Origin: Wickerhamiella versatilis
Taxonomy: Eukaryota
Direction of reading: 5' to 3'
Assembly (NCBI GenBank): GCA_030867685.1
Contig: JAQOWU010000003.1
Location: 620,001-684,000, forward strand
Length of the DNA stretch: 64,000 nt
Part shown: positions 2 through 62,217 of the stretch, piece by piece
Layout: each line of letters opens with the position of its first letter
Position numbering within the stretch: the first letter of the stretch is position 1
Notes under the pieces: model-generated
Told to the model about the DNA's origin: nothing
Seen by the model: the letters and a program-made list of their open reading frames with translations, nothing else
Databases searched by the model: none
Made by a program: the position numbers and the translations under genes

Positions 2-2818
2 ACGAAAGAAATACCATACGATATATTGGTATTAGCCACCGGATCCCGTGCGGTGCTTCCAATGAATTTGCTACCACCGAACTGCGATAATCCCGCAGCG
101 CTTGGTGTATTCAAATATCGCACTATCCGGGATGTGAAGGAAATAATTGATTTTTCTGAGAGTAAGCCACTTGGAGGCCGCGCATTTGTTGTAGGTGGTG
201 GCCTCCTGGGGTTAGAGGCAGCAAAAGCGCTCTATGATTTAGGCAGCTACAGCGAGGTGTGCATAGTACATCGACCAGAATGGTTACTCAACCAGCAGCT
301 TGATGAAACAGCAGGTGGGATGCTCGTAGAGAAAGTGCGGGAGATGGGGGTGAATGTCATGCTCTCCTCTGAAATCATTCGGCTCGACACAAGCTCAGGC
401 CACCTGACCCACGTTGAATTCAAGGATGGCTCACGTATGGATGCTCAAATGGTTGTTTACGCTATAGGAATTCGTTCTAGAGATGAGCTTGGTCGTGAAG
501 CTGGCCTTGATATTGGGCCTCGTGGGGGATTTGTTGTAGATAATGATCTTCGTACGACGGACCCATCGATCTATGCCATTGGTGAATGCGCATCTTGGAA
601 TGGCAATGTATACGGTTTGATAGCACCAGGTGTTGAAATGGCTGATGTCGTTTCTTGGAATCTAACTCAGGCCAAACATCATCAACCAAAGCACTTTGTA
701 GAGCCAGATGTTGGAACTAGATTGAAATTGATGGGTGTGGATGTAGCTTCTTTTGGTGACTACTTCGCTGATTCGCTTGGACCGAAGCGTCTGCCACCAC
801 GTGGCAAGCCTGGCACCGTTCGCGATGTGGTTGCTCTGACGTATCACGATCCTTTTGCATCAACGTATAAGAAGCTAATTTTCACAAAAGACGGACAATA
901 TCTACTTGGAGGAATTCTTTTAGGAAACATAACAGAGTTTACAAAACTCTCAGTTCTGGTATCCAAGTCAAAAAAACTGGATAAACCTCCTACGGAATTT
1001 ATGGTCGGCGCGCCTTCGTCTGCTGAAGAAGATGCCTCGGAGCTCCCTGATGATACAGTTGTTTGCTCTTGCAATCAGGTAACAAAGGGCTCTCTCACGG
1101 AAAAAGTAAAATCTGGAGATTGTAGCTCTCTGGGTGAGTTGAAAGCTGTCACAAAGGCGGCGACATCCTGTGGCGGGTGCGAGGGCACAGTCAAAGCTAT
1201 ATTCCAATCAGTGATGAAATCAATGGGTGCAGAAATATCTAGCGCGCTATGCATTCATTTCTCAGAATCTCGTGCGGATCTCTTTCATAAAATAATGGTT
1301 CGCAATCTTGATTCCTTTGACAAGGTAATGCAAGAACTAGGGCGCATACCTGGCTCCAAAGGTTGTGAAGTTTGCAAACCGACTATTGCATCTATATTGT
1401 CCAGTTTGTACAACCGGCATATTATGGATAGTCAAACTGCAGGTTTGCAGGAAACCAATGACAGGTTTTTAGGTAACATTCAACGCAATGGTACTTATTC
1501 GGTAGTGCCTCGTGTATCTGCAGGAGAAATTACTCCTGAAAAACTCATTGCCTTAGGTGAAGTTGCCCGAAAGTATAATTTGTACACGAAGATTACCGGT
1601 GGTCAAAGAGTTGATTTATTTGGTGCCCAAAAACAGGACCTACCAAATATCTGGGAGCAACTTGAGTCGGTGGGATTTGAATCAGGACACGCATATGGCA
1701 AGTCTCTACGCACAGTGAAAAGTTGTGTCGGAACCACCTGGTGCAGATACGGAATTGGTGACTCTGTTGGAATGGCTGTCCGGCTGGAAGAACGCTACAA
1801 GAGTATAAGATCGCCGCATAAATTCAAAGGTGGTGTTTCCGGCTGCGTTCGTGATTGTGCGGAATTCCATAATAAAGACTTTGGACTCTGTGCAACTAAG
1901 AATGGCTTTAGCGTATACGTGGGCGGAAATGGAGGAATGAAACCAACTCACGCTAAGTTGCTACAAGAGGATGTTCTTCCAGATCGTGTCATCCCTCTTC
2001 TTGATCGTTACATTATGTTTTACATCCGCACAGCAGATCGCCTACAGCGCACAGCCAGATGGTTGGAAAACTTACCAGGTGGCCTTGATTATCTTCGTGA
2101 GGTGATTATAGATGACAGGTTAGGAATCTGTGATGAGCTTGAGACGCAAATGAACAAATTAGTCGGTAGCTTCCATGATGAATGGGCGGAGGCAGTAAAG
2201 AACCCTGAGTTGAGGAAGGATTTCCGACAATTCGCCAACACTCCACGAAGAGTAGAAAATGTGGAGATCGTTTATGAACGTGGACAGCCTCGTCCAGCAG
2301 ATTGGCCAATAGATGAAGAAGCCGGTGAGGCGAAAGAGGATTTCAAAGATAAGAAATGGACGACTACAGAGTGGACCGATGTATGCTCTTCTGATGACTT
2401 GCCAAAGGTTGAGGCAGGGTCATCTACAACGGTATTAATTAGTGATTCGCAGATTGCAATTTTCCGCTTGGATGATAAGCTGTTTGCCAGTCAAAATATG
2501 TGTCCGCACCGTCGTGCGTTTGTATTGAGTCAGGGAATTATAGGAACAGGTGAAAAAAATGAGCCTTATGTATCCTGTCCGATTCACAAACGCAACTATA
2601 ATCTAGAGAGCAATGCGGGTTCCTGTAAAAACGATCCTCTTTTGTCGATTGCCACTTTTGATGTTAAAGAGGAGGGAGGAAGGATTTTCGTAAAGTTGCC
2701 ACCAGCAAACGAGCTTGACGATCTGCTTTCGACGAACAAGTGGAAGGTAAGAAAAGGAGAGGTAAAAAAGCCCCGCCTTGCTGACGTTGACGCGAAATAC
2801 TCAAATACCTTTGCCTGA
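2..2818 (+). CDS. YNI1: Assimilatory NAD(P)H nitrite reductase, 5'-truncated by the window edge; true C-terminus may extend to 2864 in the +1 frame
   Basis: Frame is open from base 2 (TKEIPYDILVLATGS). Contains VGGGLLGLEAAKA, two BFD-like [2Fe-2S] motifs (CSCNQV..CGGC; GCEVCKP), siroheme/[4Fe-4S] ligands KSCVGTTWCRYG and GVSGCVRDCAE, and a C-terminal Rieske domain (CPHRR..CPIHK). Confidence 0.97.
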   Translation, partial: TKEIPYDILVLATGSRAVLPMNLLPPNCDNPAALGVFKYRTIRDVKEIIDFSESKPLGGRAFVVGGGLLGLEAAKALYDLGSYSEVCIVHRPEWLLNQQLDETAGGMLVEKVREMGVNVMLSSEIIRLDTSSGHLTHVEFKDGSRMDAQMVVYAIGIRSRDELGREAGLDIGPRGGFVVDNDLRTTDPSIYAIGECASWNGNVYGLIAPGVEMADVVSWNLTQAKHHQPKHFVEPDVGTRLKLMGVDVASFGDYFADSLGPKRLPPRGKPGTVRDVVALTYHDPFASTYKKLIFTKDGQYLLGGILLGNITEFTKLSVLVSKSKKLDKPPTEFMVGAPSSAEEDASELPDDTVVCSCNQVTKGSLTEKVKSGDCSSLGELKAVTKAATSCGGCEGTVKAIFQSVMKSMGAEISSALCIHFSESRADLFHKIMVRNLDSFDKVMQELGRIPGSKGCEVCKPTIASILSSLYNRHIMDSQTAGLQETNDRFLGNIQRNGTYSVVPRVSAGEITPEKLIALGEVARKYNLYTKITGGQRVDLFGAQKQDLPNIWEQLESVGFESGHAYGKSLRTVKSCVGTTWCRYGIGDSVGMAVRLEERYKSIRSPHKFKGGVSGCVRDCAEFHNKDFGLCATKNGFSVYVGGNGGMKPTHAKLLQEDVLPDRVIPLLDRYIMFYIRTADRLQRTARWLENLPGGLDYLREVIIDDRLGICDELETQMNKLVGSFHDEWAEAVKNPELRKDFRQFANTPRRVENVEIVYERGQPRPADWPIDEEAGEAKEDFKDKKWTTTEWTDVCSSDDLPKVEAGSSTTVLISDSQIAIFRLDDKLFASQNMCPHRRAFVLSQGIIGTGEKNEPYVSCPIHKRNYNLESNAGSCKNDPLLSIATFDVKEEGGRIFVKLPPANELDDLLSTNKWKVRKGEVKKPRLADVDAKYSNTFA

Positions 2819-20427: not shown

Positions 20428-20745
20428 ATGTTTGGTCTCAGGAGAAATCATAAAAAGGAGCAAACTAGGCAGATGATGCAAGGGTTGGACTCGGCCCTTG
20501 ATACCTTGGCACAACTAAAAGAGCAGCACTCTGAATGCGAAGCTCAATTGCAAGCCTGGTCGTCCAAATGCAGTGATGGGATAAAGGCGCTCCGGAACCA
20601 TGATATAGTGTTCGACCATTCTCCAGACACGACTGCTGCAAGCGAGATCTCTGATCAGTATTTTTTGAAAGATACATCATCGATCCATACAGTTGATACT
20701 TTTTTTTTCGACCAACATGCGCTTTCTCAGATACGTTATACATGA
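20428..20745 (+). CDS. Hypothetical 105-aa protein with a coiled-coil N-terminal half
   Basis: ATG-initiated ORF filling an intergenic gap, with heptad-like LDSALDTLAQLKEQHSECEAQLQ. Confidence 0.5.
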   Translation: MFGLRRNHKKEQTRQMMQGLDSALDTLAQLKEQHSECEAQLQAWSSKCSDGIKALRNHDIVFDHSPDTTAASEISDQYFLKDTSSIHTVDTFFFDQHALSQIRYT

Positions 20746-24271: not shown

Positions 24272-24673
24272 CTAGGGCGCCACCTCTGAATACTCACCAG
24301 CAGCTACTCTATCACGGAACTTCTTTTCAACAACATCACAGACATCAATAAGATCGCTCAAGCCTTTACGGAAAGCCTCTATAGCGGTCGTTTCCCCATA
24401 TGTTTGAACTCGTAGATGCATTTGCGATTCGGAGGGGTGAGGGATTGAGTATCCACAAAATTCCACATCGGGATTTTTCATGATCATAAATCGCAGAGTG
24501 TTTCCCAGTGTGTGGTCTTCATATTTGATTTGAAAACTTGCCGCTGTGCCATCAGAAGAGGCTCCAGGCAGTATGGTGATCTTGTCTAATTTTGCGTTCT
24601 CTAGCGTTGGATCTGCTGTCGCCTTATTGCTATCAGACTGAGTCGCATCGTTCATATTAACATCATCTGCCAT
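24272..24673 (-). CDS. RPC19: RNA polymerase I/III subunit AC19
   Basis: EDHTLGNTLRFMIMKNPDVEFCGYSIPHPSE. Confidence 0.97.
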   Translation of the reverse strand: MADDVNMNDATQSDSNKATADPTLENAKLDKITILPGASSDGTAASFQIKYEDHTLGNTLRFMIMKNPDVEFCGYSIPHPSESQMHLRVQTYGETTAIEAFRKGLSDLIDVCDVVEKKFRDRVAAGEYSEVAP

Positions 24674-28763: not shown

Positions 28764-29162
28764 TCACTGTAATTCGAACAATTCTTCGTCTTCCTCCACC
28801 ATAGGACCCTTTCTCGATCTCTCATGCTTAGATAGAAACCAATTAGACTCATCTTCGGACAAATCCTCATCCACGTCATCGGCTTCGCGTGGGGTGCTGG
28901 CAGGGGTGTCCTCTTCGTCACTGAAGTCGAAACTTTCCTTCACAGGCGTTCCGCATGTAGGACGACGAAACTTTGATGGCTCGAAACGGCTAGGTTTAGG
29001 ACAGTCGAAATGTAGAGGCTTGCTCCAGTTTGATATAAATTCTCTCTGTTCGCTTTTCACGACAAGAATTTGCTTAGGCTGTGCCTGGGTGAGTGGGCCA
29101 TCGCCTGTAATAGGCTGGCAGCCCTTAGATGTAACAACGGGGGTTCTTGAACACAATAACAT
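28764..29162 (-). CDS. Hypothetical disordered acidic protein
   Basis: ATG at 29162, several TP sites, and acidic C-terminus ..EEDEELFELQ. No family recognised. Confidence 0.6.
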   Translation of the reverse strand: MLLCSRTPVVTSKGCQPITGDGPLTQAQPKQILVVKSEQREFISNWSKPLHFDCPKPSRFEPSKFRRPTCGTPVKESFDFSDEEDTPASTPREADDVDEDLSEDESNWFLSKHERSRKGPMVEEDEELFELQ

Positions 29163-32093: not shown

Positions 32094-33035
32094 ATGGCAA
32101 CCCAAGTAAAGACCACCACTACCTCCAAGAGACTTCTTGCATCCCAACAACACCAGAGTAGAAAGATAAATTTTGGAAACGACTACAGTGATGCCTATGC
32201 TCGTACTTCCATTTTCCCCCAAGCACACCTCACAAATATCCATGACCCACAGATAGGGTATCCTAAGCGTCAAAGACTCCACGAACTGAAGAAGCTTCAT
32301 ATGAAAAAGCATTTTCAGCCAGCGGCAGGCCTAAGAGCCAAGGTCGAAGACCAAGAAGCCGTTTTACGACAACTGAGTGATCAAGGGGCGCAATTTGATG
32401 TTGTAATGATACATGGTTGCATTGAAAAGTATCCGTCTGTCGAGGAACTCAAAAAGTTACCTATCGGGTTGCTGACGCCCAAGCCGAGTCTGTTGTTTGT
32501 TTGGGCACCTGCCGAGCGTTTAAGTGAAACTCGACAAGCAATGGAAAGTTGGGGGTTTCGTCGGGTAGAGAATATTGTTTATGCAATTGCCTCGGCGAAT
32601 TCTATGCACAATCCAGAATCTCAAAGTCAGAACTGGTTGACTCAACAAGTATTAAAACGCACAACGTGGCATTGTCTCATGGGCATGAAGGGGACATTAA
32701 GACGATCTGAAGATACACATGTCATTAACTGCAACGTGGACACAGATCTGCTCGTTGAGAAGACTGGTTCCTTACCAGGAATAGTCCCTGAAGAGATTTA
32801 TTCTATCATAGAGAATTTCACGAATATGAATCGTCGATTGCACGTTATCCCAGCCAAAGCACCTGAAACGCTGCCAGTGAGACCAAGAAAAGGCTGGGCG
32901 ATTGTGAGCCCTGACATTTTGCTCTCCAACCTAAATGCATCAAATTATCAGGAGCGCCAACTTGTTCCAGTAAACTACAAGATAGACGAGCTCAGGCCTC
33001 GAACGCCTCTCGCTCGTGACTATGTCATGCATTAA
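32094..33035 (+). CDS. KAR4: Karyogamy protein Kar4 (MT-A70/METTL14-like)
   Basis: NDYSDAY, GYPKRQRLHELK, WGFRRVENI, WHCLMGMKGTLRRSEDTHVINCNVDTD. Confidence 0.92.
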   Translation: MATQVKTTTTSKRLLASQQHQSRKINFGNDYSDAYARTSIFPQAHLTNIHDPQIGYPKRQRLHELKKLHMKKHFQPAAGLRAKVEDQEAVLRQLSDQGAQFDVVMIHGCIEKYPSVEELKKLPIGLLTPKPSLLFVWAPAERLSETRQAMESWGFRRVENIVYAIASANSMHNPESQSQNWLTQQVLKRTTWHCLMGMKGTLRRSEDTHVINCNVDTDLLVEKTGSLPGIVPEEIYSIIENFTNMNRRLHVIPAKAPETLPVRPRKGWAIVSPDILLSNLNASNYQERQLVPVNYKIDELRPRTPLARDYVMH

Positions 33036-33400
33036 TTACGAACAACCATAGCGACTGTATACTCACCATCATGACTCAAAGTCAGTAGAACTGTATCATC
33101 CCGTAGATCGTCGGACACAAGCCTAAGCTGACCATCGACCCATGCTTTTCTCCACTTATTAAAGCGACAGTGCTTTTGTTCATTTCTATTAAGACTTTTG
33201 TACAAGGCCTCCTTGGCCGCCCAAGCGGATGCCAAACTTTGGACTACAGATTCCGCTGTGACCTTGCTCTGCTCCTCAGGATGTAGTATCCTCTGGCAAA
33301 TCCTTTGCTCGCGTGACGGACGTCGCTTTAAAATCTCCCTAAATCTCGCTATGCGCACGATATCTACCCCTATCCCACGAACCATCATCCACTTACTCAT
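33032..33400 (-). CDS. PPT2: AcpS-type phosphopantetheinyl transferase
   Basis: GIGVDIV, WAAKEALYKS, LSHDGEY. Plausible starts at 33400, 33388 or 33385. Confidence 0.88.
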   Translation of the reverse strand: MSKWMMVRGIGVDIVRIARFREILKRRPSREQRICQRILHPEEQSKVTAESVVQSLASAWAAKEALYKSLNRNEQKHCRFNKWRKAWVDGQLRLVSDDLRDDTVLLTLSHDGEYTVAMVVRN

Positions 33401-33409
33401 ATTTTTCGA

Positions 33410-34351
33410 ATGACTCGAAAGTTGCCTGAGAGTAGATACGACCTTAACACTTATTGGGGCCGTGTACAGCATTTTGCTGAGGTCTCTAACCCAGTTATGT
33501 TGTTTCATAGCAATGAAACAATCAAACGCGCACAACAGGCACTCAGGGAATACGAGTCAGGAAAGCGCGAAGAATCTAAAGAACTTTGGAATGATAAACT
33601 ACTTGTTGACTCTTCCGTTCATCCAGATAATGGTGAGATAGTTCTTCTGCCTTTTCGCATGTCATCTTACGTCCTCAGTAACTTGGTAGTCACTGTGGGA
33701 ATGCTCACGCCTAACCTAGGCACAGCAGGAACTTTGTTCTGGCAAATTGCTAACCAAAGTCTTAATGTCGCTGTAAACACAGCAAATGCAAACAAAAGTC
33801 ATCCACTTAGCACATCCCAACTCATCCAAAACTATTTAGCCGCTGTCACTGCTTCGTGTGGGGTAGCCTTGGGGCTGAACGCCTTAGTACCTCGTCTCCG
33901 GCGAGCCAGTCCTGGTCTCAAAGCCATTCTCAAGCGCCTTGTTCCATTTGCGGCTGTTGTTAGTGCCGGGTGGCTCAATGTAACCCTTATGCGCAGCTCA
34001 GAAATGGTGAAAGGCATAACAGTTTTCGATAAGGACACTAACGAACCTTTAGGCAATTCAAAGGCTGCTGCAAGACGTGCCGTTTTCGAAACTGCTGCTA
34101 GTAGAGCATTTAATGCGATGCCTATAATGGCGGTTCCTCCACTCGTACTTATGAAATTACAGAAAACACGCTTCTTACAAGGACGTTCGAAGCTTGCTGT
34201 AAATGCAGTTAACGTCGGCTTAATTGCTGCCACATCCTTTGCAGTGCTGCCTTTTGCACTGGGTGTATTCCCTCAGAGACGTGTTATTTCGGGAGATAAA
34301 CTTGAACCAGAGTTTTATGGGAAGACAGTGTCATTCAATCGTGGCGTTTAG
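33410..34351 (+). CDS. FSF1: Sideroflexin
   Basis: SRYDLNTYWGRV, SSVHPDNGE..LPFRMS, FWQIANQSLNVAVN, FNRGV. Confidence 0.96.
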   Translation: MTRKLPESRYDLNTYWGRVQHFAEVSNPVMLFHSNETIKRAQQALREYESGKREESKELWNDKLLVDSSVHPDNGEIVLLPFRMSSYVLSNLVVTVGMLTPNLGTAGTLFWQIANQSLNVAVNTANANKSHPLSTSQLIQNYLAAVTASCGVALGLNALVPRLRRASPGLKAILKRLVPFAAVVSAGWLNVTLMRSSEMVKGITVFDKDTNEPLGNSKAAARRAVFETAASRAFNAMPIMAVPPLVLMKLQKTRFLQGRSKLAVNAVNVGLIAATSFAVLPFALGVFPQRRVISGDKLEPEFYGKTVSFNRGV

Positions 34352-35109: not shown

Positions 35110-36075
35110 ATGGTGGATCTAGTAGAAACGCCACCCGAACATTGTCCGGGTCCTGAGAGCAATAAGGCTGGACTTGATTCGAATTGCGTTGGTTGTCCCA
35201 ACAAAGAAATATGTGCCAGCCAGCCTAAGGGTCCCGATCCGGATATCCCAGCTATCAATGAAGCTTTAAAAAATGTGAGACATAAGATTCTCGTTTTGAG
35301 TGGTAAGGGAGGTGTTGGTAAATCTACTTTTTCAGCATTGCTTGGTTGGGGGTTTGCTTCAGATCTCTCGAAGGAGGTTGCGATGGTCGATCTCGACTTC
35401 TGCGGACCATCACTCGCCCGAATTCTGGGTACTGAGGGCGACTCTATACATATTTCCGCTTCTGGATGGTCTCCAGTCCTTGTAGATGATAATATGGGGC
35501 TTATGAGTATTGCATTTATGCTGGCCGACAAAGATGATGCTGTTATCTGGCGAGGGCAGAAAAAGAATGGGTTGATCAAGCAATTTTTGAAAACTGTCGA
35601 TTGGGGTGTAGACGAGATAGACTATATGATATTTGATACACCTCCTGGGACTGGTGATGAACATATTTCGATCAATCAGTATCTCAAGCCCAGTGGTTTA
35701 GATGGCGCTGTCATTGTCACGACACCCCAAGAGGTGGCATTGCTAGATGTCCGCAAAGAAATAAATTTTTGCAAGAAAGCCGGAATTCCGATACTTGGAC
35801 TAGTGGAGAACATGGCTGGATTTGTTTGCCCCAGTTGTGGGGGAAAGTCAGATATATTTATTCGGACAACTGGTGGTGGTGAACAGTTGGCAAAAGAACT
35901 CGGTATAGCATATCTTGGGTCAGCTCCCCTTGATCCACGTATTGGTCAGTGTAGTGATAATGGATTGAACTTTGTCGATGAGTATCCCCAGTCACCGGCA
36001 ACACTTGCAATTCAGACAATAATTTCGAACATAAAAGGGCGTCTTGAAGTACCTTCACCAGCATTGTCACCGTAA
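35110..36075 (+). CDS. NBP35: Cytosolic Fe-S assembly P-loop NTPase
   Basis: EHCPG..CVGCPNKEIC, VLSGKGGVGKST, DTPPGT, ENMAGFVCPSC. Confidence 0.96.
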   Translation: MVDLVETPPEHCPGPESNKAGLDSNCVGCPNKEICASQPKGPDPDIPAINEALKNVRHKILVLSGKGGVGKSTFSALLGWGFASDLSKEVAMVDLDFCGPSLARILGTEGDSIHISASGWSPVLVDDNMGLMSIAFMLADKDDAVIWRGQKKNGLIKQFLKTVDWGVDEIDYMIFDTPPGTGDEHISINQYLKPSGLDGAVIVTTPQEVALLDVRKEINFCKKAGIPILGLVENMAGFVCPSCGGKSDIFIRTTGGGEQLAKELGIAYLGSAPLDPRIGQCSDNGLNFVDEYPQSPATLAIQTIISNIKGRLEVPSPALSP

Positions 36076-36428
36076 TTTGGATCTAGAATTTAATTCCTAC
36101 AACACAAGTATAGAAACATGTATGTACTCATATCTCCCTAACCTGAAGTCCAAATGGTCTTTCCTATTTGGGTTCTTTGCATATGAAATGGGTTTTTGGC
36201 ATATAGAAGACCTTAAAGGCTTCTATTTAAGTGGCTGTTCATCAATATATACAAATAGACTATTGTCTTAAATTTGCTTTCTTCAGTACAGCCCAGTTCT
36301 TTGATTTTCTATGAAGTGATGGTGATCACCTACTCCACTAACACAAAATTGCCTAAAGGGGTTGCATGCATCTGGCGAGGTAAAAATACTATATAATTTG
36401 CAATAAATCCTGTTCTCAGTAACTAATA

Positions 36429-36698
36429 ATGAAATTTCTCTACACGCTTCTCCTCTCATCAACCTTTGCTGCACCCACTGTTCAGGCTGGCGAACCATCG
36501 TCAGACCTCGGGGTTCGATCTGAAAGTTTAGAGGAAATTGCGAATTATATTAAGCTTCCTACAACGGAATTTGCCAAGCGCCTCGGCCTCAGTATTGACG
36601 GTGAAGACTCTTCAATCTACAGGCGATCCCCTGACCCCATCTTTTATGTCAAGAAGGGCGGTAGCTTAGAATACAGTCCTTGGGCACCAAGCTTTTAA
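36429..36698 (+). CDS. Putative alpha-type mating pheromone precursor with a single peptide copy
   Basis: Signal peptide MKFLYTLLLSSTFA-AP, pro-region EEIANYIKL, Kex2-type RR, Ste13-type SP-DP, then IFYVKKGGSLEYSPWAPSF*. Confidence 0.7.
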   Translation: MKFLYTLLLSSTFAAPTVQAGEPSSDLGVRSESLEEIANYIKLPTTEFAKRLGLSIDGEDSSIYRRSPDPIFYVKKGGSLEYSPWAPSF

Positions 36699-36987
36699 GG
36701 TACATTAAAGATTTCCTTTCGCGAATATACTTATCCAATGTCCTTTTAATTAGTTATTAGCGTGCGACAAGTCGTCTGACACTATAGATAGTAATAATTA
36801 TCAGGGCCGAAGGTCATCACACAATAAGACCATAATAGTGGGCTGAAAAGGCCTAGCTGGTATGCTACATGGGATTTCTTAATATGCAATCATTTAAACT
36901 AAAATCCCTGGTAGAAACCGAGCCGAGACATTATGATATGAACTAGAACTACTCCAGAAAAAAGCATCTGTGAATTAGCTAGTGAAA

Positions 36988-38139
36988 TCACTCCTTATTA
37001 AACGGATATACCCATGGCAAAGCTTTGAATTCTTCAAGACTTTTTGGAACCGAGTGGACTTCACATACACCCACACCTGGCCCACCAACGGCCGTTTTTA
37101 TAACATTAAACCCCTTAAGGCGTGATTGCAATGCATCTATTGACACGGAGTCATCATTGAGAAGCGTTATTGCGCACCCTCCCCCTCCTGCTCCTGTCAA
37201 CTTTGTATTTCCCAATCCCAGCTCTGCGGTGGCATGTCTTACTTCTTCCAAGGCAGGATGGCTCACACCAAGACCAACTAGCATTCCATGATTGATTGAT
37301 GCCAGTTCACCCAGCTTCAGAGTAAGATCTTCTACTGGAAGAGGATGAGCTAGAAGTTCATCAGCTTCCAAAGTTACGGCCTTCATAGTATCCATTAAGG
37401 AATCAAATAGGCGCGGCCAGCGCTTTTTTATATTCGATACATGATTAACGAGCTCAGAAGTCATTCGAGGAACATGAGTATCCACTAGCAACAATCCTGT
37501 AGATGGAATGTTTGAATATGGAACCAAACTGGCAGGCTTTCCTTGCACTCTGGAAAAGTGTACAGCTCCTCCATATACAGCCACTGCATTATCTATTCCC
37601 GAGGGTTTTCCATGAATGCAACACTCACCCATAAAGCTCCAGTGCAATACCTCTTCTTTTGTGAGAGGTCTGTCGGCAATATGCATTATCGCGGTGGATA
37701 GGCATACAGAAAACCCAGCACTAGAGCCAAGTCCAGCACCTATAGGGAGCCCACTACGTACTGTGAAACGGTATCCACCTTGAGCGCCAGGCCCAATACA
37801 CGCGTAGATGTATAAAAATGCAAGCGCAGCTTTATAGGAAAAACTATCGAGCTTCCATTTATCTAAAGTACTCGTAAGAGCCTCAAAGAGTGTTTCGTTC
37901 AATGAATTATCCCTAGAAGATTCTTCTTTGGCCAAATTAAATGGGATTTCAGAAACACGAATACTAAATCGAAGGTCAACATCTGGAAAATCTAGTTCGA
38001 CATGATCTTTACTTTCGTAATTATCAACACCACAGTATGTACGTAGCGAGACTGCTCCTGCTATAGCGGGTACCCCATATACAACTGCGTGTTCGCCGAA
38101 AAGAATAACTTTGCCAGGTGCACTGACTGTGAATGGCAT
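36988..38139 (-). CDS. ERG12: Mevalonate kinase
   Basis: SAPGKVILFGEHAVVY, LPIGAGLGSSA, HGKPSGIDN, TKLTGAGGGGC. Confidence 0.97.
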   Translation of the reverse strand: MPFTVSAPGKVILFGEHAVVYGVPAIAGAVSLRTYCGVDNYESKDHVELDFPDVDLRFSIRVSEIPFNLAKEESSRDNSLNETLFEALTSTLDKWKLDSFSYKAALAFLYIYACIGPGAQGGYRFTVRSGLPIGAGLGSSAGFSVCLSTAIMHIADRPLTKEEVLHWSFMGECCIHGKPSGIDNAVAVYGGAVHFSRVQGKPASLVPYSNIPSTGLLLVDTHVPRMTSELVNHVSNIKKRWPRLFDSLMDTMKAVTLEADELLAHPLPVEDLTLKLGELASINHGMLVGLGVSHPALEEVRHATAELGLGNTKLTGAGGGGCAITLLNDDSVSIDALQSRLKGFNVIKTAVGGPGVGVCEVHSVPKSLEEFKALPWVYPFNKE

Positions 38140-49118: not shown

Positions 49119-49475
49119 TTAAACACCTCGGCCGCGAGCTCTCCTGAAACCTCCCCTGCCACGTCCCCGACCGCGAATTTTTGATTTGGCAGAATTAATA
49201 GGAGCAGTCTGCCTGGGACGACGCGAATCATCTATCAATAGAGAATCAAGGGGTAGCGATTCTGGTAAAATATAGTTTCTGATAGTTGAGCCGCGGATAT
49301 TGATATTCTCAAGTCGTACAGGCTCTTCATCCTTTAAAGTCATCTGTACGTTGCGTAATGTGGTATTCATATTGGGACTTACACTTACTATGGTTCCCGA
49401 TATCACCGTGCCGTTCTTCAGTTCAACCTGCACCTGCTCCGATGCCAGTTTCATCAGAAACCGCACCAGCTGCAT
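49119..49475 (-). CDS. SMD1: Sm core protein D1
   Basis: [33 protein letters not shown], and an RG tail. Confidence 0.96.
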
Positions 49476-55828: not shown

Positions 55829-56221
55829 ATGTCCTCGGTATGGGGTAAGTTGCGTGGTGCTTCTGAACATTTGCGTGCTAGAGGAGATCATGATGCTTCA
55901 GAGAACGATACTGCAATTTTGAGAGCGTTAGAAAGGTTTTATGAGGGTGCGGGACCAACATGGTTAGGTACTTCTCAAAATGAACCACAGACAGCACAGG
56001 ACGCACGAATTCCTACTACAGCAGCACATCGTCCAGCACGTAATGATATAAATACAAAATATGAAGCACCAGAGTCAGGCATTTCAAATTCCACTTCATT
56101 GCAAGACATTCTCCAACGCTCAAGTGCCTCATCACCAACTCCTCAACCGGAGTCACCACTCCACAGACCAGAGCGTACTAGATCGGGATTAGCGAGCAAA
56201 CTAAAAAGAGCGAACTGGTAA
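55829..56221 (+). CDS. MSO1: Sec1-binding exocytosis protein
   Basis: SENDTAILRALERFY..PTWL resembles the Mso1 Sec1-binding region; also SLQDI. Confidence 0.7.
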   Translation: MSSVWGKLRGASEHLRARGDHDASENDTAILRALERFYEGAGPTWLGTSQNEPQTAQDARIPTTAAHRPARNDINTKYEAPESGISNSTSLQDILQRSSASSPTPQPESPLHRPERTRSGLASKLKRANW

Positions 56222-61965: not shown

Positions 61966-62217
61966 ATGAGTACTGCTCCGTCTTCACAGATCTCTGGCAA
62001 CAATGCCGCGTCTGATTTCCTCAAGGAGATAAAAGGTCAGCCTGTTGTGATTAAGCTCGTATCCGGGACTGAGTACCATGGTAACTTGCAGGCTGTTGAT
62101 GGCTTTATGAATATCAATCTTAATGAAACCAAAGAAGTCTATAAAGGGACAACAGTTGCTGATTATGGCAATGTATTTCTCAGGGGTACCCTTGTCACTT
62201 ATATTTCGTCAGCTTAA
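61966..62217 (+). CDS. LSM6: Sm-like protein Lsm6
   Basis: SDFLKEIKGQPVVIKL.SG.EY.G.L..VDGFMNI.L..YGNVFLRG. Confidence 0.9.
   Translation: MSTAPSSQISGNNAASDFLKEIKGQPVVIKLVSGTEYHGNLQAVDGFMNINLNETKEVYKGTTVADYGNVFLRGTLVTYISSA

Follow-up and report, generated by a model that had tools for sequence, protein, structure and literature searches.

The candidate gene lies in a 64,000-nucleotide stretch of DNA, referred to here as the window, which is gene-dense (41 open reading frames (ORFs) of at least 150 aa when simple ATG-to-stop frames are counted), has a GC content of 44% and looks like the DNA of a budding-yeast-type lineage lacking an annotated close relative. Most occurrences of window DNA are in metagenomes from food and food fermentation, with some in sediment samples. 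A gene for an NAD(P)H-type assimilatory nitrite reductase with Pyr_redox_2, NIR_SIR, BFD-like 2Fe-2S and Rieske_2 matches runs off the window start (2-2818, forward strand) and suggests a yeast using nitrate or nitrite. Rfam and tRNA scans of the 64-kb window gave no matches.

The ORF under study, P0001, occupies the interval between NBP35 and ERG12 to which it had originally been assigned, and the identity of both flanking genes was upheld by Pfam, that of ERG12 also by named homologues: a P-loop NTPase of NBP35 type lies upstream on the same strand and a mevalonate kinase lies downstream in convergent orientation. The NBP35-type protein carries cysteines at positions 12, 26, 29 and 35, a spacing which we take to be the N-terminal four-Cys pattern of Nbp35. 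The closest ERG12 proteins found were 97% and 73% identical (the latter being P0015), and the nearest named ones, from Wickerhamomyces ciferrii, Sugiyamaella, Trichomonascus, Lipomyces and Pichia and thus from several yeast orders, were 43-47% identical. KAR4 had also been placed about 3.4 kb away; a KAR4-like ORF recognised by the Pfam family MT-A70 does end at 33035, 3.4 kb upstream of the candidate, but this proximity is evidence for nothing. The longest frames of an ACPS phosphopantetheinyl transferase (33032-33508, reverse strand) and of a sideroflexin (33410-34351, forward strand) share 99 bp at their 5' ends, so one of the two true starts is probably a downstream ATG. The features of the locus, together with the small ORFs found in other gaps of the window, are listed in Table 1.

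Table 1. Features of the NBP35-ERG12 interval and small ORFs in other gaps of the window (positions in the window)
Feature	Position	Strand	Basis and remarks
Possible orphan small gene, in gap	20428-20745	+	105 aa; codon score 0.134; no Pfam match
RNA polymerase Rpb11/AC19-type subunit, small ORF in gap	24272-24673	-	RNA_pol_L_2, E 2e-31
Possible orphan small gene, in gap	28764-29162	-	132 aa; codon score 0.211; no Pfam match
NBP35 orthologue, upstream same-strand neighbour	35110-36075	+	Pfam ParA/NUBPL, E 1.1e-85
TTTCCTATTTGGG, Mcm1-like half-palindrome with CC-N6-GG spacing	36160-36172	+	257 bp upstream of ATG; sole match in window
Two 16-nt direct repeats, TGGGTTCTTTGCATAT and TGGGTTTTTGGCATAT	36169-36204	+	20 nt apart; overlap the Mcm1-like site
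TATATAA, TATA-like box	36390-36396	+	Sequence; 33 bp upstream of ATG; putative function
Candidate prepro-peptide gene P0001	36429-36698	+	89 aa; ATG at 36429, stop at 36696-36698
Signal-peptide-like segment, residues 1-20	36429-36488	+	MK, 13-residue uncharged hydrophobic core, P-T-V-Q-A; passes hydrophobic-window heuristic
Acidic pro-region, residues 21-51, ending K50-R51	36489-36581	+	Sequence; pI 4.14 for residues 21-49
13-residue acidic inter-peptide and R65-R66, residues 52-66	36582-36626	+	Sequence
S-P-D-P, residues 67-70, two X-Pro dipeptides of Ste13-removable kind	36627-36638	+	Sequence; predicted processing
Proposed mature 19-residue peptide, residues 71-89, abutting the stop	36639-36695	+	Sequence; predicted product
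Mevalonate kinase (ERG12), convergent downstream neighbour	36988-38139	-	Pfam GHMP kinase domains; homologues named 'mevalonate kinase'
LSM-domain protein, small ORF in gap	49119-49475	-	LSM, E 2.4e-16
Possible orphan small gene, in gap	55829-56221	+	130 aa; codon score 0.205; no Pfam match
LSM-domain protein, small ORF in gap	61966-62217	+	LSM, E 1.5e-18

The frame of P0001 contains a single methionine, the ATG at 36429, which is the sole possible start of the ORF because an in-frame TAA precedes it at 36420-36422; an A occupies position -3. The protein has neither cysteine nor N-glycosylation sequon. The original prediction described a signal peptide ending FA-AP, and the residues F13-A14-A15-P16 are indeed present. 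However, signal peptidase favours small residues at -3 and -1, and a proline at +1 is unfavourable. Judged by this rule, cleavage is most likely to take place after V18-Q19-A20 rather than at FA/AP, since the former meets the small-residue requirement and the latter would leave a proline at +1. The segment EEIANYIKL, said to parallel the pro-region of MFalpha1, was located at residues 35-43, but the likeness itself went unbacked: P0001 gave no Pfam match at E <= 1 or E <= 10, the families MF_alpha_N (PF05436) and MF_alpha (PF04648) included. The remaining landmarks were all read as predicted, namely K50-R51, R65-R66 followed by S67-P68 and D69-P70, and a tail of 19 residues running to the stop codon. 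The inter-peptide between the dibasic sites is dissimilar to the C-terminal peptide, so that the two sites flank unrelated peptides, and a repeat search of the ORF DNA found no internal direct repeat. As had been remarked, a single copy and a length of 19 aa are unusual; alpha-type pheromones are quoted at 9-14 aa in the text consulted of PMC6265332.

Should the ORF be a genuine small gene whose product is a secreted prepro-peptide, this precursor would enter the ER, where signal peptidase would remove residues 1-20. A Kex2-type protease would then cut after K50-R51 and R65-R66, freeing the 13-residue acidic inter-peptide as well, a Ste13-type aminopeptidase would trim S-P and D-P, and the 19-residue peptide (71-89) would be secreted as the product. 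Because this peptide ends at the stop codon, it would need no C-terminal trimming. Lys-Lys is a poor Kex2 site; a 13-mer (77-89) would arise if K75-K76 were nevertheless cut, and a 23-mer (67-89) if the X-Pro pairs stayed in place. The computed monoisotopic masses are 2175.104 for the 19-mer, 1396.630 for the 13-mer and 2571.269 for the 23-mer. The proposed mechanism is modelled on the alpha-factor processing pathway as outlined in PMC6265332. The length of the predicted product, 19 aa against the 9-14 aa quoted there and 13 aa only if K75-K76 is cut, counts against a pheromone.

Searches for relatives of P0001 were carried out in protein, structure and literature collections. In a word-indexed search of 5.8 billion clustered proteins, the ORF's own cluster alone was recovered at similar length, and none of 159 candidates for a homologue among longer proteins scored. 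A HMMER search against 1.84 billion representatives returned the ORF itself and P0014 as sole matches. The latter was rejected as a homologue: residues 16-47 aligned to it in six places, with 24-27 bits and 34-38% identity, and its E-value was discounted as chance because it was inflated by the six copies of a 24-27-bit match. P0014 is a 422-aa protein in which a unit of about 67 residues, with RRGRR at its end, occurs six times. No PDB sequence match was obtained at E <= 10. In the ESM Atlas, an alpha-factor precursor cluster, with MF_alpha_N in 99% and MF_alpha in 74% of its members, ranked fifth overall and second among named clusters with a score of 0.76; as a score of 0.9 was needed for more than a lead, this match was retained as a weak lead towards a pheromone. 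The Atlas recognition value of P0001 was 1655, below the 2300 reached by 91 of 100 proteins of known families.

A single-sequence AF2 model of P0001 reached a mean pLDDT of 61.1 and a pTM of 0.46, with pLDDT values of 78-80 over residues 31-50. At this low confidence the model places a strand at 29-32, helices at 34-40 and 45-52, and strands at 61-66, 71-76 and 79-83, the last two predicted to form a hairpin around K-K-G-G. When the model was compared with the PDB by Foldseek, no structure matched at E <= 0.001 (best E 0.34), and these predictions, taken together, favour neither a folded protein nor a cleaved precursor.

The locus was also sought in relatives and in the literature. Searches found no relative of the P0001 ORF from the species with the 73%-identical ERG12 (P0015). 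When JGI metagenome contigs were scanned with NBP35, 80 loci were retained, with 60% identity for the best of them; ORFs were read in 11 of the 80, and no small ORF downstream of NBP35 there combined a signal-like start with dibasic sites. In the searched literature, which covered neither supplements nor subscription journals, the peptide and signal-peptide fragments were absent; nor did the literature searched contain a paper joining NBP35, pheromone and synteny, or one joining alpha pheromone, single copy, Kex2 and mating. Srikant et al. (bioRxiv 10.1101/2021.09.28.462209, text consulted) argue that homology between pheromones fades once about 100 million years have passed, and that the usual mark by which alpha-factor genes are identified is their repeats. 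With this rate of fading, and with the nearest named ERG12 as distant as it is here, missing pheromone homology is expected.

Whether P0001 is a gene or a chance ORF was assessed by feature content, spacing and codon usage. The feature criteria consisted of an early basic residue, an uncharged hydrophobic window, a last KR or RR, one to three X-A/P dipeptides and 9-25 aa to the stop. Among the 76 ORFs of 60-200 aa in the window only P0001 shows this combination, which counts for a real gene, with the proviso that the criteria were set post hoc with P0001 already seen. In 200 block-shuffles of the 64-kb window three qualifying ORFs appeared, or 0.015 per window. The pattern alone is no proof of a gene, because a genome of 10-15 Mb is then expected to give about 2-3 such ORFs by chance.

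The spacing from NBP35 to ERG12 without the ORF is 912 bp. Of the 14 convergent gaps counted in the window it is the largest, the remainder measuring -4 to 713 bp; with the ORF placed, the interval splits into gaps of 353 and 289 bp. Other large gaps in the window hold real small genes, namely the RNA_pol_L_2 ORF and the two LSM ORFs of Table 1, and this too counts for a real gene. The codon score of P0001 is 0.13 per codon, at the 19th percentile of 381 segments of 89 codons from real genes (0.198 +/- 0.077). Spurious overlapping ORFs (n=43) scored -0.009 +/- 0.113, with 3 of the 43 at 0.13 or above, so that P0001 lies closer to real genes than to spurious ones. Among the small genes, the three confirmed by Pfam scored 0.236, 0.235 and 0.163, and an ORF antisense to the candidate (36283-36498) scored -0.023. 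The absence of cysteines and of an N-glycosylation sequon, and the lack of a match to any solved fold, were also counted on the side of a real gene. On their codon scores, the ORFs at 28764-29162, 55829-56221 and 20428-20745 may be orphan small genes.

Four variants of the ORF were available for comparison. The frame is open at 89 aa in the cluster members P0002 and P0003, which differ by P23S and S61A, and a further contig (X19) is 98% identical to the window, with 54 base differences and one gap over about 3 kb. The 40 differences listed for this contig appear to run in order of position, so the ORF portion looks complete; among them, six substitutions and no indel fall within the ORF, and the single insertion, at 36792, lies outside it. 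Read by codon, three of the six are synonymous (L8, I56, D57) and three are replacements (S10T, T45P, I71M). Among the differences listed, the divergence of the ORF (6 in 270) stands beside 10 in 353 for one flank and 8 plus one insertion in 289 for the other. Residues 72-89 are identical across all four variants seen. That the frame stays open in all four counts for a real gene, but with three synonymous against three replacement changes they lie too close together to reveal purifying selection.

Two RNA runs available as raw reads and labelled with the same species gave a summed depth of about 0.4-3 over the ORF against about 60-140 over NBP35 and ERG12, or about 1-3% of the neighbouring genes, in runs that state neither mating type nor culture state. 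Depth in these runs was zero at 36221-36442. The library behaves as unstranded, and the few reads over the ORF could stem from a weak ORF transcript or from 3' read-through of ERG12; the depth is compatible both with transcription of the ORF and with its absence. A third run (X20), consisting of food metatranscriptome contigs, was uninformative for the ORF, its coverage being limited to parts of ERG12.

Upstream of the ORF, the TATA-like TATATAA lies in a plausible place; its distance of 33 bp from the ATG would imply a very short leader, which counts against the pheromone-gene reading. The S. cerevisiae Mcm1 motif is given as TTTCCTAATTAGGAAA in a table of PMC1779545. Compared with it, the putative site TTTCCTATTTGGG retains the motif's left half as well as its CC-N6-GG spacing and has no right-hand AAA. 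Mcm1 sites of alpha-specific genes show such asymmetry. Exact matches to the pattern are expected by chance at 0.03 per window, and the pattern was found in 3 of 100 shuffles. As it was derived from the Mcm1 P-box and chosen with the site already seen, the Mcm1-like site is a lead only; as such it counts for the pheromone reading and adds an argument that the original prediction did not contain. Both of the 16-nt direct repeats at this site have T-rich cores (TTCTTTG and TTTTTGG). By eye, no exact Ste12 site (TGAAACA) was present in 36076-36428, where one-mismatch forms only were seen.

A second argument absent from the original prediction comes from the neighbourhood of MFalpha2 in S. cerevisiae, where YGL089C is MFalpha2 (PMC3737163) and YGL091C is NBP35 (PMC1457003). 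Their systematic names place them two ORFs apart and on the same strand; in the window, the candidate directly adjoins NBP35, likewise in the same orientation. By the S. cerevisiae naming convention MFalpha2 presumably lies upstream of NBP35 with one gene between them. The likeness is therefore one of neighbourhood and not of collinearity, because the candidate lies downstream of NBP35 and MFalpha2 upstream. We put at <1%, as a rough figure, the probability that one of the dozen or so neighbours of MFalpha1 and MFalpha2 recurs among four flanking genes. By this analogy the NBP35 neighbourhood counts for the pheromone reading.

Three readings of the ORF were weighed. It may encode a one-copy precursor of an alpha-type pheromone, that is, an unmodified peptide sensed by Ste2; we regard this as possible and favour it tentatively, stopping short of calling it probable. 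The original prediction had offered a divergent Ste2 ligand or else another Kex2-processed signalling peptide, and this stands as the best available reading; the architecture is present, but there was no profile match, no homologue in the searched collections and a near-zero transcript. These findings count against a pheromone, as do the lack of repeats and the post hoc nature of the criteria. Several of them would equally be expected if P0001 were an ORF that had arisen by chance in a long stretch between genes, its signal-like start and dibasic pairs being coincidental and no protein being made. The searched collections gave neither homologues nor a family match; RNA depth was about 1-3% of that of the neighbours, from reads that could be ERG12 read-through; the Atlas recognition value fell below 2300; the codon score of P0001 is equalled or exceeded by 3 of the 43 spurious ORFs; the polymorphism looks neutral (three synonymous and three replacement changes), with the divergence of the ORF close to that of its flanks; and at 0.015 per 64 kb a whole genome should contain a few comparable ORFs, this one having been picked in a scan of very many windows. 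However, a chance ORF would leave the NBP35-ERG12 interval as the largest convergent spacer in a window whose other large gaps hold real small genes, and its codon score would still lie nearer to real genes. The match of its NBP35 neighbourhood to that of a known alpha-factor gene (<1% by the rough estimate above) and the plausible placement of the A at -3, the TATA-like box and the unique Mcm1-like site also speak against coincidence, and we consider this explanation unlikely.

The evidence of gap size, codon score and feature combination bears on a real gene as such, and would serve as well for a secreted product acting outside mating, either a small protein or a peptide released by Kex2, be it a signalling, antimicrobial or cell-surface product or an uncut small fold. 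The lack of repeats, the missing MF_alpha_N match and a peptide longer than usual alpha-factors fit such a product, and the regular structure in the AF2 model could mean a small fold instead of a cleaved precursor. Against it, a small secreted fold would have no cysteines to hold it together, and the best fold match had E 0.34 against a threshold of 0.001; the position beside NBP35 and the Mcm1-like site would be left unexplained; near-zero expression in the sampled culture would be unusual for a constitutive secreted protein; and non-pheromone Kex2-processed precursors are rare in budding yeasts as described in the text consulted of PMC7329392. The same source counts Kex2-processed repeat precursors in budding yeasts (Saccharomycetes) at 1.35 per strain, with alpha-factors among their types. 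A product of this kind also seems unlikely to us, and the alpha-type pheromone precursor is carried forward as the preferred reading.

In its fullest form the preferred reading is that of a single 19-residue alpha-type pheromone with a basic Lys-Lys-Gly-Gly turn in mid-peptide, still beside NBP35 like MFalpha2, a combination that we put forward with more reserve than the pheromone assignment itself. The usual ways of finding alpha-factor genes, through tandem repeats or homology, both fail for the candidate. If the reading is true, the linkage of MFalpha with NBP35 would be far older than the Saccharomycetaceae, and searches based on repeats or homology would systematically miss one-copy alpha-factor genes, for which NBP35 adjacency could then serve as a means of location across deep divergence. 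A real gene of this type would present the alpha-factor class in an unusual form of one copy and long peptide. As a pheromone it would open a way to study how a yeast of food fermentations completes its sexual cycle and, for the peptide-Ste2 pairs used in engineered cell-cell signalling (PMC6265332, text consulted), an unusually long single-copy ligand. If it is not a pheromone, it would be an ordinary orphan ORF.

Among known systems, the fission-yeast P-factor (map2) belongs to the same class of unmodified pheromones and clearly exceeds 13 residues; it differs from the candidate in having several copies in its precursor and in belonging to a distant lineage. The fungal KEPs, as described in the text consulted of PMC7329392, share a signal peptide and dibasic-delimited peptides with the candidate but are defined by repeated core peptides, of which the candidate has none. 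In the excerpt of PMC5106798, MFalpha2 of Saccharomycopsis fibuligera is an ORF of similar size (306 bp) for which Kex2 and Ste13 processing is likewise proposed, and it encodes three copies of an 11-residue peptide in contrast to the single 19-residue tail of the candidate. MFalpha1 and MFalpha2 of S. cerevisiae differ from the candidate in their tandem copies of a 13-residue peptide against one copy of 19 residues, and the candidate lacks both a profile match and an N-glycosylation sequon in its pro-region; the order of signal peptide, acidic pro-region, dibasic site, X-Ala or X-Pro dipeptides and a peptide running to the stop is nonetheless alike (architecture as given in the text consulted of PMC6265332). 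The short ORF of Saccharomycopsis fibuligera counts as a precedent for the pheromone reading, and so do the predicted single-peptide precursors of the filamentous ascomycetes Ceratocystis, Davidsoniella and Endoconidiophora (Ceratocystidaceae), likened to the candidate by description only, for which the text consulted of PMC13037118 reports predicted alpha-pheromone genes encoding one peptide each.
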